A DNA stretch of 25,332 nucleotides from a virus. The DNA is taken from UHGV virus genome UHGV-0346448. The stretch is one strand, 5' to 3'. Shown here in pieces: positions 337 to 6,440 of this stretch. The position numbers and the translations under genes are program-made. The notes beneath the pieces were generated by a model. The model did no database searches. It worked only from the letters and a program-made list of their open reading frames with translations, and was not told the DNA's origin. The first letter of the stretch is position 1; each line of letters begins with the position of its first letter.

Positions 337-492
337 TTACTCCTCAGGTTCGTAAGCTGTGAAGACAGCGACCTCCGTCTGGCCGGTTCGGATTCGTACC
401 TCGCAGAGGTCTTTCCTCGTTACCAGTGCCGTCACAATGACGGTTAAACAGATGACGATCAGGGCGATTAGCATCGCCTTTTGCTGCTTCAT
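337..492 (-). CDS. hok: Hok/Gef-family type I toxin (51 aa small membrane toxin)
   Basis: Translation MKQQKAMLIALIVICLTVIVTALVTRKDLCEVRIRTGQTEVAVFTAYEPEE matches the Hok/Gef/RelF family as I remember it (single TM helix, conserved CEVRIRTGQTEVAVF core); ATG at 492-490. Confidence 0.9.
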   Translation of the reverse strand: MKQQKAMLIALIVICLTVIVTALVTRKDLCEVRIRTGQTEVAVFTAYEPEE

Positions 493-549
493 AGCCTGCT
501 TCTCCTTGCCTTTCGGCACGTAAGAGGCTAACCTACGTGTGTAGAGCAT
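337..549 (-). CDS. mok: Mok-like reading frame (in-frame N-terminal extension of hok, 70 codons)
   Basis: ORF in the track extends hok upstream by 19 codons (MLYTRRLASYVPKGKEKQA-), as in chromosomal mokC/hokC-type loci where mok is an in-frame extension of hok. Confidence 0.5.
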   Translation of the reverse strand: MLYTRRLASYVPKGKEKQAMKQQKAMLIALIVICLTVIVTALVTRKDLCEVRIRTGQTEVAVFTAYEPEE

Positions 550-665
550 AGATATGGCCTCAGATTAATGTTAAGCGTCTTGCCGGACGCGTAATGTTAA
601 CTGGGGCTTTTCTCTATCTGCCTTTTGGTGTTCATGCCTGAGACAGATAGCCTCAAGCACCCGCT
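540..665 (+). ncRNA. sok: Approximate location of a Sok-like antisense RNA, overlapping the hok mRNA leader and mok start
   Basis: Position inferred from hok/sok architecture only; hok mRNA 5' end motif GCGGGTGCTTGAGGCTATCTGTCTCAGG is the reverse complement of 638-665; Sok boundaries and promoter not resolved. Confidence 0.3.
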
Positions 666-2936: not shown

Positions 2937-3761
2937 TCAGGCGGTGAAAGTACCAATAAAGGTTTCTACTTTGCTGTCTTTGAATTTCTCAACAAGCAGA
3001 TCACGAAATTCGTTAGCCATATCTTCCTGCACCGCTTCCAGCTGAATAATGCGCAGAACCAGTACAGGACGATCGCCAGTGATAATGCTGAGGCGTAATT
3101 TAAACGGACGTTCTTTCAGACCTTCAAACGGAACGCATTTAAATTCAAATGCCACTGGCATAATGTCTTTGGTCTTCGCTTCGACAGATTCCATCAGGGA
3201 GCGTTTGCCGCTGAAGTCATTATCTTCAAAACCAGCGGTCTGGTTTGCTTCAATCGTGATTTTACGGACTGCCGCAGCCGCTTTTGTTGCCTGAATAGCG
3301 TCACCATTAGCATCAAAGCCCACAAGGTAGTCGGCCCAGTCTTCAATCCATTCTGCCAGTGACTTCTGGGAGTTACGCTCGTCGTTAACAGACAGCAGGG
3401 CAGAGAACGGTGCTGTCTTTTTCAGTTTGAGAGTGGCGGTGTTATCTGCGTGACCTGGTTCATCAATAGTACCCAGGTTAAGTACACTGACGGCACGCAT
3501 ATTATCAGCATCGATAAAGCAGCGGGTGCCTTCATCTGCAAGATCTTTAGAATAACGGGTAAAGTCATCGATGCTGGCAGTGGAAAGCGCACCACGGAAA
3601 CGGAAGCGATTTAAATTAAATTTTTCCAGATCATGAATGCGGAAATTCTCAGGCAATGCCACAGCATCGGCACCAATCTTACTGATAATTTCATTAACAC
3701 CCTGAGCAGAAATAAGGGCATGGATTTGATTAATTGCGGTTGCGTCTAAGTTCTGAGACAT
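2937..3761 (-). CDS. yfdQ: YfdQ-like protein (DUF2303 family, 274 aa)
   Basis: 274-aa ORF with GAGGA RBS; N-terminus [14 protein letters not shown] and length match my memory of CPS-53 YfdQ; sits immediately upstream of the yfdR-like gene. Confidence 0.8.
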
Positions 3762-3826: not shown

Positions 3827-4188
3827 TTAATGACCTGCTGCGCGGAGTTTTCCGTCAGGTTCACCGGCAAGAGTCAGTAATTGTCCCTGGTCTTCCTGCA
3901 GAATAGTCAGGCGACCACCGCGATTGACATACATCGGCGTTTCGGTGGTGTCTTCTTCGGAAATTTTCCCGCGGTTAGTCGGGCGAACATATGATAGTTT
4001 GTGTTTGATTTTCACACGGTTCTCATCAAATGGTTCGATTTCCAGGTTGAGTGAGACCTTACCTTTGGTTTTCGTGTTCATCACACCGGAAGCGACTTCA
4101 CTGAGAACTGCGCCGATTTTGGTTTCAAATACGCCGCCGTCCAGCTCCCCGATAAATGCCTGCACATCAGTACTGCGTTCGCTAGCCA
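3827..4188 (-). CDS. yfdP: YfdP-like protein (120 aa)
   Basis: Internal ATG at 4188-4186 with GAGGAGC RBS; product MASERSTDVQAFIGELDGG...; the 226-aa track ORF 3827..4507 has a low-complexity, unsupported N-terminal extension. Confidence 0.7.
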
Positions 4189-4238
4189 TTTTGCTGCTCC
4201 TCATCATATCGACCCTGCAAGGTCGGTTGGTTTCTCCA

Positions 4239-4375
4239 CAAAACAGAGAAGAACACCTGCGGTGGCAGCCGCTCGGATGGATTGGGTTATGAGCCCGTCG
4301 TCCGGTGATGCTCTTCTCTGTTTTGTAAAAAGAGCGGTACCAGCCGGAAGCAAGTGTACAAACTGGTACCGCCAG
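4239..4375 (-). promoter_or_regulatory. Structured leader upstream of yfdP: boxA-like CGCTCTTTTTA followed by two long perfect inverted repeats (candidate nut/put-like element)
   Basis: Minus-strand CGCTCTTTTTA (rc of 4326-4336); 14-bp inverted repeat 4239-4252 / 4312-4325 with about 60-nt spacer; 10-bp inverted repeat GCGGTACCAG 4334-4343 / 4363-4372. Confidence 0.3.
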
Positions 4376-4657
4376 GACTACACACAGCATAAAGTTGTGG
4401 TGCCGGGTGCCTCCCGGTGCCTGGCGAAGGTTGCACACCAGACGGGTGGGTATCCACAGAAGGTCGACTGTCAGCCTCAACCTTAACCCGCGTGCGCTGA
4501 GCCGCATTCACCACAACGCTAAGGATTCTCTTTGGTTGAAAATACTTAGCTGTTATGTGCCTGCTTTTAGCCACATCAGGCGAGGTGGACCTGGTTATTC
4601 CCCAACAACAAGGATTTGGTTATTATGTAACCCTCCCCAACAACGATAAGGATTTAT

Positions 4658-4747
4658 ATGGATCTATGTGTAGATAAGTATGAGGAGAGGCATGTGCCGT
4701 TAAGACAAAAGCCTCCAGTTCCTCCAAAACCACCCAAGGAAAACTGA
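4658..4747 (+). CDS. Proline-rich micro-ORF P0 (29 aa) immediately upstream of the membrane-protein gene
   Basis: AAGGA RBS 6 nt before ATG 4658; translation MDLCVDKYEERHVPLRQKPPVPPKPPKEN; stop 7 nt before the 4755 start; tail resembles two further micro-ORFs downstream. Confidence 0.3.
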   Translation: MDLCVDKYEERHVPLRQKPPVPPKPPKEN

Positions 4748-4754
4748 GACTAAT

Positions 4755-5249
4755 ATGACCAGAGACGATTATAAATTTTATATTCACTACTCTTATGTAT
4801 TGGAGAAGATGAATTACACGTTGTTAACTCGCATTGATAAATTAATAACGTTGATGTTAATCGTTCTCGGTTTTTCAGTTTTCGCCCCGTACAGTAATTT
4901 ATTTATTTTTGGTTTGTTTGTTGCCGTACTTTCGGTTCTTCAGTTGGTCTATCAGTTCGGCCAGGAGGCTGGGATGTCTAAAGAACAAGCGAGACATTAC
5001 AAAAGACTGCTGATTGAGTCTGATACTCTTTCTGAAGATCAGTTGCAAGCTAGGTATTTAAAAATCCAAGATACTGATAGTAATCCATGGAAATCACTTG
5101 AACGAGCGGCTTTCATTCGGGCCTGTATTTTTGCTGGTGTTCCAACTAAGTACGATTTAACAACCAAAGAAAAATTTATAGCTTGGTGTGCGGGAGATCT
5201 ACCTCTAGAGAATGAACTAACGGATATTAATGATGAGCAACAAGCATAA
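4755..5249 (+). CDS. AT-rich moron: small membrane protein with two N-terminal TM helices and a charged C-terminal domain (possible superinfection-exclusion or abortive-infection function)
   Basis: 164-aa ORF; hydrophobic stretches LITLMLIVLGFSVFAPY and LFIFGLFVAVLSVLQLVYQF; visibly AT-rich relative to neighbours; convergent to the P_L-like promoter; own terminator downstream. Confidence 0.7.
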   Translation: MTRDDYKFYIHYSYVLEKMNYTLLTRIDKLITLMLIVLGFSVFAPYSNLFIFGLFVAVLSVLQLVYQFGQEAGMSKEQARHYKRLLIESDTLSEDQLQARYLKIQDTDSNPWKSLERAAFIRACIFAGVPTKYDLTTKEKFIAWCAGDLPLENELTDINDEQQA

Positions 5250-5304
5250 TCCAGTTCACGGACATGTACCTCCGAAGCCGAAACCACCGAAACCGAAGAA
5301 ATGA
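5230..5304 (+). CDS. Proline-rich micro-ORF P1 (24 aa), overlapping the 3' end of the membrane-protein gene
   Basis: ATG 5230 in a different frame from the 164-aa gene; translation MMSNKHNPVHGHVPPKPKPPKPKK; C-terminal tail conserved with P2 at protein level despite divergent codons. Confidence 0.3.
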   Translation: MMSNKHNPVHGHVPPKPKPPKPKK

Positions 5305-5323
5305 GACATAATAGGATTGGATA

Positions 5324-5392
5324 ATGAGCCGACCAATAGAGCCTTTTCATATTCCTCCTCGTCCCAGGCCACCAGGTCCAGGCCCAAAGTGA
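5324..5392 (+). CDS. Proline-rich micro-ORF P2 (22 aa)
   Basis: AGGAT RBS 7 nt before ATG 5324; translation MSRPIEPFHIPPRPRPPGPGPK; followed by a terminator. Confidence 0.35.
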   Translation: MSRPIEPFHIPPRPRPPGPGPK

Positions 5393-5413
5393 GGGTTACT
5401 GATTTTTAAAGAG

Positions 5414-5440
5414 CAAAGCGTCCTGTAGGGCGCTTTTTTG
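5414..5440 (+). terminator. Rho-independent terminator closing the moron cassette
   Basis: Imperfect GC stem AAGCGTCC/GGGCGCTT followed by TTTTTT (5434-5439). Confidence 0.5.
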
Positions 5441-5524
5441 TTGCTAACGAATCATCCGGTCATTCATACGCCACCGGCGGCTACTTCGTGGGCGTCCTGC
5501 CTGTTCGTTACTGCAACATCTTTA

Positions 5525-5565
5525 AGTTGTAATCTAGTTGTTGTTTTGGTTGTTGTCAACAACTT
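5525..5565 (-). promoter_or_regulatory. P_L-like early-left promoter with overlapping operator palindrome (O_L)
   Basis: Minus-strand -35 TTGACA (rc of 5554-5559), 17-bp spacer, -10 TAGATT (rc of 5531-5536); 15-bp perfect palindrome GTTGTTGTCAACAAC at 5549-5563 overlaps the -35; half-site CAACAACTTTA recurs at O_R. Confidence 0.5.
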
Positions 5566-5753: not shown

Positions 5754-6440
5754 TTACCAAGTGCGCGATGACCAGAATACTCTACCTATAACGTGAATTC
5801 TGGAACGCCTATCTTCGAAGGTGAGAATTTCATCTGGATACTCATCTTTATTGAAACTTCTTAGAATCAGACCACCGTCAGGTAAATTGATCAATATTTT
5901 AACTCTAAGTAATACGCCATCACGTATGGCATAAAGATCCCCATCACGAATAGGAACCGTTTGGGAAACATCAACAGCAACAAAATCTCCATTGTTAAGT
6001 ACAGGTAGTAAACTATTGCCCCAAATTTTTACGATCTTTGCATTGGAGACACATACACCAGCTTTTCTTAAATCAATCCTTCTTAGCGGGAACCAGTCTA
6101 CAGTTGATTCAACTATTTCAGCCAAACATCCATTACCCGCTGATAACTCGACATCTAGGACTGGAATGTTTGCAAAAATGTCAGGATCTAATGCTGTACT
6201 TTCAGCCTCCTTTACAACAAGGTCTGGGAAAGACGCGTTATCCTCAATGCCCAATTGCAACCACTTTTGAGAAACCCCTAACACTTTAGCAATCTCTTTA
6301 ATTTTCCGAGGCTGTTGAGTTTCTCCATTCTCGATTTTCGCTACGGATTGTTGTGAAAGCCCAATTTTTTCAGCTAGTTGCGCCTGACTCATTCCTGCTT
6401 TTTCTCTTTCGCTTTTTAGTCTTTCTGCCAATGTTTTCAC
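5754..6440 (-). CDS. cI: CI-like prophage repressor (XRE-type HTH plus S24/LexA-like autopeptidase domain)
   Basis: N-terminal HTH (MSQAQLAEKIGLSQQSVAKIENGE); Ala-Gly cleavage-site context (ELSAGNG); C-terminal S24-like region; GTG start with GAGGGGG RBS; divergent from a Cro-like gene. Confidence 0.9.
   Translation of the reverse strand: MKTLAERLKSEREKAGMSQAQLAEKIGLSQQSVAKIENGETQQPRKIKEIAKVLGVSQKWLQLGIEDNASFPDLVVKEAESTALDPDIFANIPVLDVELSAGNGCLAEIVESTVDWFPLRRIDLRKAGVCVSNAKIVKIWGNSLLPVLNNGDFVAVDVSQTVPIRDGDLYAIRDGVLLRVKILINLPDGGLILRSFNKDEYPDEILTFEDRRSRIHVIGRVFWSSRTW

Follow-up and report, generated by a model that had tools for sequence, protein, structure and literature searches.

The closest studied system is the dicBF operon of the K-12 prophage Qin, in which DicF is made only from dicBp, with no internal promoter, and is released when RNase III (190-nt form) and RNase E (53-nt form) cut the operon transcript; no read-through species past DicF was detected in Qin (bioRxiv 10.1101/2023.04.14.536235). 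The spacer between dicF and dicB contains a mapped RNase III site (supplement of PMC5371410). Terminated, Hfq-bound sRNAs are the form in which canonical STnc100 and PasD accumulate (PMC5331693; bioRxiv 10.64898/2026.05.13.724894). STnc100 copies are expressed in EHEC lysogens, with one confirmed by northern blot (PMC5331693), and PasD, found associated with Hfq by RIL-seq, ranks with the most abundant sRNAs on Hfq in EPEC. The put RNA of phage HK022 spans ~70 nt and forms two side-by-side stem-loops with conserved residues U28, G35, G45, and A64 (PMC9378689).

We analyzed a 25,332-nt stretch of DNA from the virus genome UHGV-0346448 (hereafter, the window), in which the minus strand at 4190-4540 is a single composite, conserved, and highly folded RNA leader of four parts located 5′ of yfdP (Table 1). 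The folding z-score equals -4.95 for the minus strand and -4.12 for the plus strand (4190-4545), in line with the initial annotation, which had described a structured, non-coding leader on the minus strand. All repeats and motifs that it had placed between 4200 and 4750 are present, including a long inverted repeat with 25-nt arms of 84% complementarity (4238-4262/4302-4326; perfect core, 4238-4252/4312-4326) and a GGTACC-containing repeat that is perfect over 10 bp (4334-4343/4363-4372). Its fallback suggestion, that the region encodes an sRNA, is borne out by the relationships to STnc100 and DicF described below. A leader occupies the matching position, in the interval separating the repressor from the first early-left gene, in SfV, ST64B, e14, phiES15, phiNP, and Kp4866-6, and the same layout is found in many enterobacterial temperate phages as well as in the Qin dicBF operon. 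The leader is conserved across 100 unique phage leaders, in which the terminator, the long hairpin, and the small hairpin all covary, and homologous sequence is present in about half of the complete E. coli genomes (2780/5426).

Table 1. Features of the early-left leader and its surroundings, from the repressor gene to yfdP (window order on the minus strand: cI-like gene, PL, leader, terminator, yfdP)
Feature	Position	Strand	Remarks
cI-like gene	5754-6440	-	
Early-left promoter PL (probable), TTGACA-17-TAGATT	5531..5559	-	promoter scan 10 of 12; reads 5559->5531
62-nt structured element	5446..5509	-	5′ end of the PL transcript
Moron 5′ leader	4598..4657	+	two ~36-nt units, TCCCCAACAAC..AAGGATTT
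Invariant block CCACCUCGCCUGAUGUGGCUAAAAGCAGGC (minus-strand reading)	4559..4588		between the RNA and the plus-strand moron start
STnc100-like RNA	4325..4539	-	full extent of the RF02076 alignment: structured domain, linker, terminator
P1-closed core domain, ~125 nt	4394..4517	-	P1, A, X, D, E
Helix P1	4509-4517 with 4394-4402	-	recovered in the MFE fold
Hairpin A	4493-4506	-	recovered in the MFE fold
X segment	4478-4484	-	pairs with the hairpin D loop 4427-4433 (pseudoknot)
Hairpin D	4420-4442	-	recovered in the MFE fold
Hairpin E	4403-4417	-	recovered in the MFE fold
DicF-like module	4325..4393	-	linker, terminator, U-tract
Linker UUUAUGCUGUGUGUAGUCCUG	4373-4393	-	part of the DicF-like module
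Intrinsic terminator hairpin	4334-4372	-	8 stem pairs with compensatory changes
U-tract	4325-4333	-	region earlier called boxA-like CGCTCTTTTTA
Long hairpin domain	4238..4326	-	20-25-bp stem, directly 3′ of the terminator
Conserved core GACGGGCUCAUAACCCAAUCCA of the long hairpin	4278-4299	-	in at least 120 viral contigs
Conserved GGAGAAAC	4230-4237	-	within the 4197..4237 element
Small hairpin, (U)GCAG loop	4210-4225	-	covarying stem, loop kept
Shine-Dalgarno sequence GAGGAG	4197-4202	-	before the yfdP start codon ATG 4187-4189
yfdP	3827-4189	-	

The 5′ part of the leader belongs with the STnc100 family. The covariance model (RF02076) aligned over its entire length (cmscan, 42.1 bits, E 8e-8, model positions 1-206 of 206, 4325-4539 on the minus strand), with a score below the Rfam gathering score of 47 bits. 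Matches at the same position were obtained for phiES15 (40.6 bits), SfV (39.5), ST64B (35.1), and e14 (29.2), and a sister copy (locus L018) reached 47.8 bits. The invariant 22-nt core of the family, CACCGGGAGGCACCCGGCACCA, is exact in the window at 4398-4419(-) and occurs at 110 genome loci overall; loci sharing this core are bona fide STnc100, canonical copies of which score 56-208 bits. The GGUGAAU junction of the family is likewise present in the window domain.

Alignment of all 110 core domains with MAFFT and RNAalifold mis-aligned the variable middle and was replaced by anchor-based helix detection combined with cross-sequence permutation. By this approach, the X:D-loop pseudoknot, formed in the window by AAGGUUG pairing with CAACCUU, was detected in 107 STnc100 family members. 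Every helix examined, the pseudoknot included, was far more complementary within sequences than in the cross-sequence permutations. The complementarity of the pseudoknot is 6.16 in matched versus 4.56 +/- 0.11 in cross-sequence comparisons (73 distinct helix sequences); the corresponding within- and between-sequence values are 7.20 and 5.18 for hairpin D, and 2.72 and 1.85 for the P1 extension. This pseudoknot is new for the STnc100 family and is first defined in the present analysis. The conservation of the core exceeds what a base-pairing sRNA would need, which hints at another function, possibly in cis. Canonical STnc100 genes have their own TTGACx-17-TAAATT promoter abutting P1, and the terminator follows P1 by 20-45 nt in 76 of 117 family members. 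By contrast, scanning and inspection of the minus strand directly upstream of the window domain (4540-4600) revealed no evident sigma-70 promoter, only weak hexamers, and nothing convincing as a sigma-54 or sigma-70 promoter was found at 4540-4590. Expression of the window RNA in the lysogen is therefore uncertain.

Downstream of P1, the leader continues into a module resembling DicF. Local alignment of this module with the 53-nt K-12 DicF scored 26, compared to 13.2 +/- 2.3 (maximum, 25) in shuffles, and relatives scored still higher: e14, 35; locus L207, 34 (nearly the whole of DicF); and O111, 30. The Rfam DicF model (RF00039) gave 15.4 bits at 4332-4386(-), short of its threshold of 48, as well as weak matches in L207 (29.6), L195 (29.1), and e14 (28.5), K-12 DicF itself scoring 76.7. 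The linker GCUGUGUGUAGUC is retained even in phiES15 and L227, despite a completely different terminator sequence. The U-tract UCUUUUUAC is short, interrupted, and poorer than in typical Hfq-dependent sRNAs. Qin contains the same building blocks in the order P1-closed cassette, linker, DicF terminator, STnc100-like domain, and dicB, within the gene order dicA, ydfABC, cassette, DicF, and dicB; DicF is the terminator module there, and the STnc100-like domain forms the 5′UTR of dicB. An antiterminator pairing between the 3′ arm of hairpin D (CGCCAGG, 4420-4426) and the 5′ arm of the terminator (CCUGGCG, 4374-4380) is possible in the E. coli and ST64B copies; it was dropped because it is absent in phiES15. 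The cassettes of L207, L213, and L195 are tRNA-like, atypical, and span 125 nt. A real tRNA or tmRNA was rejected, since ARAGORN found none in the window or in 32 loci.

The long hairpin that follows the terminator was predicted de novo by RNAalifold on 19 diverse phage leaders, with broken pairs nearly nil and double changes of the types CG<->AU (n = 5), CG<->GC (n = 6), and AU<->GC (n = 3). In alignment A2, 91.3% of cells are paired versus 84.9% in shuffles, and 16 pairs carry double changes versus 6.4; none of 500 shuffles reached either value. The base of the stem is extendable, as the U-tract can pair with GUGGA. The long hairpin is probably an RNase III site and a regulator within the 5′UTR. 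The stem of the small hairpin occurs as CGACC/GGUCG, GGCGG/CCGCC, and GCGCC/GGCGC, and the 4197-4237 element precedes varied first genes, namely those of the yfdP/sb37 family, xisE, and genes which by eye are N-terminally RdgC-like.

The site at 5531-5559 is probably PL and the likely source of the leader-carrying transcript; the same promoter, together with the same downstream element, is found in L146, and its equivalent in Qin is dicBp. The 62-nt element at the start of this transcript is represented by 57 unique variants, which lie immediately downstream of strong promoters belonging to many immunity types, and its consensus comprises three helices, including a 4-bp helix with 12, 4, and 11 double changes and hardly any broken pairs. 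It is present in one copy in the window, with no Rfam match and no BLAST similarity to HK022 putL. By position, this element is a better analogue of putL than the 4190-4540 leader.

Part of what had been attributed to the leader belongs to the opposite strand. The three ACAAC-n-AAGGATT copies are real (4511-4527, 4600-4616, and 4638-4654), and AAGGATT occurs nine times in the window versus 4.0 expected, three of the occurrences falling within 134 nt on one strand; the motif, however, is a plus-strand one. Judging by sequence, two copies, at 4610 and 4648, are Shine-Dalgarno sites within the plus-strand moron's 5′ leader, and the third, at 4521, falls in the RNA's 5′ flank. The AAGGA of the second unit is the Shine-Dalgarno sequence of the previously noted micro-ORF (29 aa, 4658-4747), and that of the first precedes the ATG-TAA pair at 4625-4630, both confirmed here. 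AAGGA also precedes plus-strand ORFs at the same position in phiES15, e14, SfV, and L017, and a paired CCCC(A/T)ACA repeat, ~36 nt apart, is shared by the window and the Hafnia, 689R2, and Kp4884-1 phages. The block at 4559-4588 is conserved in phiES15, e14, SfV, L017, and Hafnia, E. coli, and Klebsiella phages, and always adjoins the start of a plus-strand moron gene. It could form an H-type pseudoknot, the candidate helices of which do not vary, so that covariation says nothing either way. A plus-strand promoter in this block is ambiguous: TAT(G/A/C)CT comes after the block in e14, phiES15, L017, and SfV, and the window lacks it there. A type III toxin-antitoxin system, suggested by 36-nt repeats before a 164-aa ORF, was rejected, given that the ORF is a predicted 2-TM protein for which ToxN, PADLOC, and Pfam gave no match, and that Shine-Dalgarno sequences sit in the repeats.

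The analysis shows the homology and architecture of the composite leader, its covariation and conserved position, and the lack of any conserved ORF. Our favored explanation, to which we assign a probability of roughly 60%, is that this leader is organized like the dicF locus, gives rise to a processed sRNA ending at the terminator, and causes attenuation of the early-left operon; the ends of the transcript, its processing, its binding to Hfq, its targets in trans, and the attenuation are what we infer by analogy. The PL transcript would carry first the 62-nt 5′ element, then run antisense through the moron, and then through four modules: the ~125-nt, P1-closed, and pseudoknotted STnc100-family domain; the single-stranded linker GCUGUGUGUAGUC; the strong intrinsic terminator; and, on read-through, the 20-25-bp hairpin and the small hairpin that immediately precedes the ribosome-binding site of yfdP. 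Termination and processing by RNases III and E, as for DicF, would produce a stable ~215-nt RNA and possibly a ~60-70-nt 3′ fragment. The latter may act in trans like the Hfq-associated base-pairing sRNAs DicF, STnc100, and PasD, the conserved linker being its likely seed. The terminator would limit expression of yfdP-yfdQ-yfdR...xis-int, and the long hairpin may correspond in function to Qin's long P1, located downstream of DicF, and to the RNase III hairpin of the lambda N leader.

Two other readings of the region fare poorly. That it is a decayed ymfH gene with incidental RNA structure is very improbable, even though K-12 e14 contains an intact 103-codon ymfH ORF overlapping the RNA, PGAP labels the region in homologues as "hypothetical protein, frameshifted," and over-expression of a ymfH clone triggers the retron-Sen2 toxin (bioRxiv 10.1101/2020.06.22.160242), a phenotype that the RNA could cause. 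On sequence comparison, ymfH is not conserved as a reading frame: in tblastn searches with YmfH, the frame was split into 2-3 pieces in 10 of 10 homologues, being broken at differing places in all of them, and amino acid identity (63-71%) is lower than DNA identity (89.5%). The K-12 copy itself has a 1-nt deletion and a G>A change in the otherwise invariant hairpin E and is therefore a derived, damaged copy. The helices are preserved by compensatory base changes. The minus-strand frames in the gap lack any Pfam or PHROG family, as expected from the initial annotation, which saw neither a convincing ORF nor an N-like protein here. Our literature search found no paper linking ymfH to an sRNA. 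That the leader holds lambda-type nut sites (boxA and boxB) for an unrecognized N-like protein is exceedingly improbable. This proposal derives from GCTCTTTAA at 5407-5415(-), which matches the rrn boxA core, and CGCTCTTTTTA at 4325-4335(-), which resembles boxA. Both motifs (4325-4335 and 5408-5414), however, consist of a terminator stem's 3′ end and the U-tract after it, the U-rich tail of a GC-rich hairpin, with no boxB hairpin after either. The shared heptamer GCTCTTT (minus strand, 4329-4335 and 5408-5414) is not enriched (7 versus 3.9 expected; 6 of 100 shuffles reach 7). Across homologues, the motif varies freely within the covarying terminator stems. Together with the lack of an N-like ORF, these observations largely refute the nut-site reading.

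The remaining alternatives accept the RNA and differ in how it is made or what it does. An independent sRNA gene, constitutively expressed, like canonical STnc100 and PasD, from its own promoter in the repressed prophage and confined to acting in trans on host mRNAs, would agree with the promoter and terminator arrangement of the canonical members, with their expression in EHEC lysogens and abundance on Hfq in EPEC, and with the terminator that the SfV authors annotated just upstream of the element. We consider it doubtful: the scan yielded no promoter-like site, the sequence 5′ of P1 is unlike that of canonical members, and dicBF has no internal promoter. Unlikely, yet the likeliest of the rivals, is a cis-acting elongation switch, in which the STnc100-like domain, with or without the 62-nt element, would modify RNA polymerase, or sense a protein or ligand, and so set read-through of the 4334-4372 terminator into yfdP...xis-int as a put-like or riboswitch-like substitute for N-nut. 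No N-like ORF is present, and the core, being invariant and pseudoknotted, resembles an aptamer or a site for protein binding. In the O111:H8/mEp460-type loci (L005, L181), a related P1-closed cassette starts at the transcription start site of a strong promoter flanked by operators, and the same terminator comes 12 nt after it, so that any early-left expression there requires read-through. The domain abuts the ribosome-binding site in L017, L018, L023, L042, and Qin dicB, and specialists have speculated about put-like RNA in N-less relatives such as phage LLS (PMC12315714). Against such a switch, put-like identity, which had been proposed earlier, is not supported, although the RNA may yet act like put: there is no likeness to HK022 putL in sequence or architecture (PMC9378689), and comparison of the HK022 immunity region with the leader or the PL leader gave no match (blastn, word size 7). 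Moreover, STnc100 and PasD accumulate in terminated form, so their own terminators work; the possible antiterminator pairing is not kept in phiES15; no second copy of the STnc100 core or the 62-nt element exists in the window, the rightward operon included; and read-through past DicF was not detected in Qin. In its broadest form, the composite leader, with the 62-nt element, an exchangeable P1-closed cassette (STnc100-like, Qin-type, or tRNA-like), the DicF-like terminator, and the long hairpin in this order, would be RNA-based elongation control taking the place of N-nut in a large group of enterobacterial lambdoid phages that lack N, which we regard as unlikely. If true, the pseudoknotted core or the 62-nt element would decide read-through by acting on RNA polymerase or recruiting a factor, and STnc100, PasD, and DicF would be terminated by-products of such switches.

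Several consequences follow from the leader as defined here. The region, annotated as ymfH or as a frameshifted hypothetical protein, is due for re-annotation as RNA. STnc100/PasD and DicF, previously handled as two distinct families of prophage sRNAs, appear together as parts of a single conserved early-left leader, both in the window and in the textbook dicBF operon. For the STnc100 family, a conserved pseudoknot is added and an invariant core is defined. The passage of early terminators by lambdoid phages without N, such as SfV, ST64B, e14, and LLS, is now testable on defined RNA elements.

Of the known systems, the lambda N leader shares with the window a long leader from PL to the first early-left gene and a large hairpin just before the ribosome-binding site of that gene, the window's hairpin being a plausible RNase III substrate. 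Unlike lambda nutL, the window has no boxA-boxB unit and no N gene, and a strong intrinsic terminator lies inside the leader. HK022 put, which binds the RNAP beta′ zinc-binding domain and suppresses termination in cis, is likewise a structured RNA encoded in cis within the early operons of a lambdoid phage that lacks N, with terminators directly downstream; like putL, the cassette of O111-type relatives begins at the start site of PL. It differs, apart from sequence, in consisting of two stem-loops and a triplex within ~70 nt, as opposed to a P1-closed multi-helix pseudoknot of ~125 nt; in location, putL being just downstream of its promoter and the window leader ~1 kb from PL; and in having a second copy in the PR operon, without rightward counterpart in the window.

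STnc100, PasD1, and PasD2 are Hfq-associated sRNAs encoded by prophages. The window RNA differs from them in scoring 5 bits under the gathering threshold, in the stem of hairpin A (UGCG/CGCA versus CCCC/GGGG in the family), in residing in an early-left leader rather than in the late region near Q, stx, and tRNA genes, in having no obvious promoter of its own, and in being followed by a conserved 5′UTR domain. Nevertheless, the alignment to the covariance model is full-length, the 22-nt core is identical, the GGUGAAU junction, P1, hairpins A, D, and E, and the X:D-loop pseudoknot are shared, and P1 is followed by a linker and an intrinsic terminator. With respect to Qin, the window cassette is STnc100-like instead of "type 3"; the candidate seed is CUGUGUGUAGUCCUGGCGG as compared to CUGGUGACGUUUGGCGG in DicF; the Rfam DicF score is only 15.4 bits; and a separate 90-nt long-hairpin domain follows the terminator in place of the STnc100-like dicB leader. 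The terminator loops of the window and DicF are unrelated; that of DicF contributes to ftsZ pairing. What the two loci have in common is a lambdoid immunity region, in which the module lies between a leftward promoter under repressor control and the first kil-like or early-left gene, inside the leftward operon, and ends at an intrinsic terminator before the next early-left gene; a P1-closed cassette (closing helix GUUGUGG/CCACAAC) followed by a linker and a GGCGG...CCGCC terminator with U-tract; and recognizable similarity over UUGGCGGUA(U/C)CAGUUU and the terminator tail.

The minus-strand interval upstream of yfdP is homologous to the E. coli prophage sRNAs STnc100 and DicF. A permissive Rfam scan returned a full-length STnc100 match (RF02076; 42.1 bits, E = 8e-8; gathering score, 47 bits), and in neither of the two related families does the leader reach the gathering threshold. 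L018, a compared locus from the same sub-group, scores 47.8 bits, above the STnc100 threshold. STnc100 matches that fall short of it were found in SfV, phiES15, ST64B and e14 at the same site, with the repressor on one side and the first gene of the early-left operon on the other. The 22-nt core of the family, CACCGGGAGGCACCCGGCACCA, is present exactly in the window, and a search with it retrieved 110 loci from many genera of Enterobacteriaceae, of which those sampled are bona fide STnc100 (56-208 bits), often in tandem and adjoining tRNA genes. Canonical STnc100 genes form arrays of 2-3 tandem copies with same-strand tRNA genes directly abutting (L035, L061, L097, L113, L084, L104, L074). The 3′ end of the match is the GGTACC hairpin followed by UCUUUUU, which is an intrinsic terminator. 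The boxA-like CGCTCTTTTTA of the initial annotation is the end of this terminator's stem plus the U-tract and not a supported boxA; the heptamer GCTCTTT is not enriched in the window (7 versus 3.9).

A common architecture was derived from 107 non-identical core domains: a closing helix P1 (GUGGUG/CACCAC), AAU, hairpin A, segment X, a variable region, hairpin D, hairpin E (CCGGG-AGGCA-CCCGG) and the 3′ strand of P1. X pairs with the loop of hairpin D to form a pseudoknot, for which 73 different helix sequences were found (AAGGUUG/CAACCUU in the window, AAGGCUG/CAGCCUU in phiES15). For every helix tested, complementarity within matched sequences exceeded that of cross-sequence permutations: pseudoknot, 6.16 versus 4.56 ± 0.11; hairpin D, 7.20 versus 5.18 ± 0.10; P1 extension, 2.72 versus 1.85 ± 0.08; hairpin A, 4.41 versus 4.04 ± 0.05. 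Hairpin E covaries with its loop kept, as GGUGG-AGGCA-CCACC (L227, L242, Kp4866-6) or CCUGG-AGGCA-CCAGG (Qin).

Directly after the terminator U-tract stands the long inverted repeat, whose conserved core GACGGGYTMATWACCCRAYCCA matched at least 120 viral contigs, yielding 100 unique leaders. In all 100 the terminator, whose stem varies freely in sequence on a GGCGG/CCGCC base, is followed in turn by the long hairpin, GGAGAAAC, a small (U)GCAG-looped hairpin, a Shine-Dalgarno sequence and the first gene, which may be of the yfdP/sb37 family, encode an RdgC-like N-terminus (judged by eye) or be xisE. RNAalifold on 19 diverse sequences recovered a 23-bp stem de novo, with compensatory change at three positions, broken pairs almost absent and the stem base taking in the terminator U-tract. 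Across the structure of the leader as a whole, a seven-sequence alignment gives 91.3% pairing versus 84.9% in shuffles and 16 double-change pairs versus 6.4, neither value being reached in any of 500 shuffles, and slid controls gave 44-50% paired. Over 4190-4545, both strands fold far better than shuffled sequence (minus, z = -4.95; plus, z = -4.12).

Features of the early-left region and its surroundings
Feature	Coordinates	Strand	Remark
hok/sok type I toxin-antitoxin locus	487-662	-	Rfam sok, 117 bits
yfdP	3827-4189	-	
Long inverted repeat	4238-4262 / 4302-4326		core perfect over 15 bp
STnc100 match	4325-4539	-	
10-bp perfect repeat with GGTACC	4334-4343 / 4363-4372		
AAGGATT	4521		within 5′ flank of the RNA
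Invariant 30-nt block	4559-4588		CCACCUCGCCUGAUGUGGCUAAAAGCAGGC as read on the minus strand
AAGGATT	4610, 4648	+	Shine-Dalgarno sequences of two 36-nt units of moron 5′ leader
Moron	4658-5392	+	
Tiny proline-rich ORFs	4658-4747, 5230-5304, 5324-5392	+	...RQKPPVPPKPPKEN; MMSNKHNPVHGHVPPKPKPPKPKK; MSRPIEPFHIPPRPRPPGPGPK
164-aa protein	around 4755-5249	+	phrog_6315; two membrane spans predicted from sequence
Strong terminator	5415-5436		end of moron
Three-helix RNA element	5446-5509	-	first 60-70 nt of PL transcript; 62 nt
PL-like promoter	5559->5531	-	TTGACA-17-TAGATT; promoter scan
CI-like HTH/S24 repressor	5754-6440	-	

The layout of repressor, PL, moron and yfdP places the leader within the early-left transcription unit, as had been assumed. 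All features of the initial annotation were recovered at their coordinates, including the three ACAAC-n-AAGGATT motifs, the ATG-TAA pair and the 29-aa micro-ORF. AAGGATT is enriched in the window (9 versus 4.0 expected), three of its copies falling within a 134-nt stretch, and an AAGGA Shine-Dalgarno sequence stands at the equivalent place before plus-strand ORFs of phiES15, e14 (ymfI), SfV and L017. A CCCC(A/T)ACA pair about 36 nt apart recurs in Hafnia, E. coli and Klebsiella phages, where it precedes sieB and other moron genes. In the window, the three proline-rich micro-ORFs flank the 164-aa protein gene. The invariant block, which could form an H-type pseudoknot, always separates the leader RNA from the start of the opposite-strand moron (sieB, ymfI and others), even in distant phages. 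A hok/sok locus is also present in the window.

In K-12 e14 (L003), the leader is overlapped by an ORF annotated as ymfH (3002-3313). Of 5426 complete E. coli genomes, 2780 carry the region, which PGAP labels "hypothetical protein, frameshifted". A protein gene was rejected: YmfH is split over two or three frames in all 10 homologues tested by tblastn, its amino-acid identity (63-71%) is below the DNA identity (89.5%), and the frames match no Pfam or PHROG family, leaving no conserved ORF. Since the K-12 sequence carries both a 1-nt deletion and a G>A change within hairpin E, which is otherwise invariant, it is a damaged copy rather than the ancestral gene. In one report, over-expressing a ymfH clone set off the retron-Sen2 toxin RcaT (bioRxiv 10.1101/2020.06.22.160242); the RNA might be the cause.

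Between conserved flanks (...CGUUGUGG and CCACAAC...), different phages carry different RNAs. This slot, closed by GUUGUGG/CCACAAC, accepts interchangeable structured cassettes of STnc100-like, O111/mEp460, Qin and tRNA-like types (early-left leaders L205-L245, L005, L181, L207, L213, L195). Against Rfam tRNA, the tRNA-like ones reach 29-44 bits across about 125 nt and pass the threshold; ARAGORN rejected them as real tRNAs. In phages of the O111/mEp460 type the cassette begins at the PL transcription start. In the O111:H8 prophage it starts where transcription from a strong promoter begins; operator-like palindromes flank this promoter, the terminator of the repressor gene lies just before, and the DicF-like terminator follows P1 by 12 nt; therefore, early-left expression of any kind needs read-through.

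With no N-like ORF evident, antitermination had been suggested as possibly put-like or reliant on an unrecognised factor. Pfam and PHROG searches found no N-like ORF. Neither the leader nor the PL leader resembles HK022 putL in sequence or in fold (comparison with PMC9378689), and the put-like reading of the leader is not supported. A better positional analogue of putL is the conserved 62-nt element, comprising a closing stem RCGAACA/UGAUUCGY, a GGC-AGGAC-GCC hairpin and a covarying 4-bp helix (12, 4 and 11 double changes). It lies directly downstream of strong promoters in many immunity types (57 variants). Rfam holds no family for it, and we regard it as a candidate for a new cis-regulatory RNA. 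The use of put-like RNAs by N-less relatives is a speculation of Casjens and colleagues (PMC12315714).

The best-supported reading, to which we give a probability of roughly 60%, is a dicF-type leader: PL transcripts would be terminated and processed into an STnc100-like/DicF-like sRNA, and the terminator and long hairpin would gate expression of yfdP through xis-int. The kinship with STnc100 and DicF supports the fallback suggestion that the region encodes an sRNA, which partly anticipated this finding. The main rival, that the structured domain itself acts in cis as an elongation switch, appears unlikely. The comparisons made here establish homology, architecture, covariation, the conserved position and the absence of a conserved ORF; for the dicF-type leader, the ends of the transcript and its processing, its dependence on Hfq, its targets and attenuation are all predicted.

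Weak Rfam DicF matches fall exactly over the linker and terminator (window, 15.4 bits; e14, 28.5; L207, 29.6; L195, 29.1), and alignment to K-12 DicF scores 26 for the window versus 13.2 ± 2.3 for shuffles (e14, 35; L207, 34). In the K-12 Qin dicBF operon, ydfC is followed by a P1-closed cassette (GUUGUGG..., 3′ strand CUGCAAC), a type that in many phage leaders found here closes with CCACAAC, then by a linker and DicF (76.7 bits). Immediately after DicF comes a domain that is STnc100-like and belongs to the same sub-type as that in the window, such that the dicB 5′UTR (L246, 7640-7815) is this domain, with hairpin E as CCUGG-AGGCA-CCAGG; its long P1 (GAAUUUUGUGAUG/CAUCACAAAAUUC) starts just after the DicF terminator and abuts the dicB Shine-Dalgarno sequence. 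We found no description of this domain in the literature on the system examined. The operon is without an internal promoter, read-through past DicF was not detected, and the operon transcript yields DicF through cleavage by RNase III (190-nt form) and RNase E (53-nt form) (bioRxiv 10.1101/2023.04.14.536235); the spacer between dicF and dicB contains a mapped RNase III site (PMC5371410 supplement). Judged by its length, the 190-nt form would span both the cassette and DicF.
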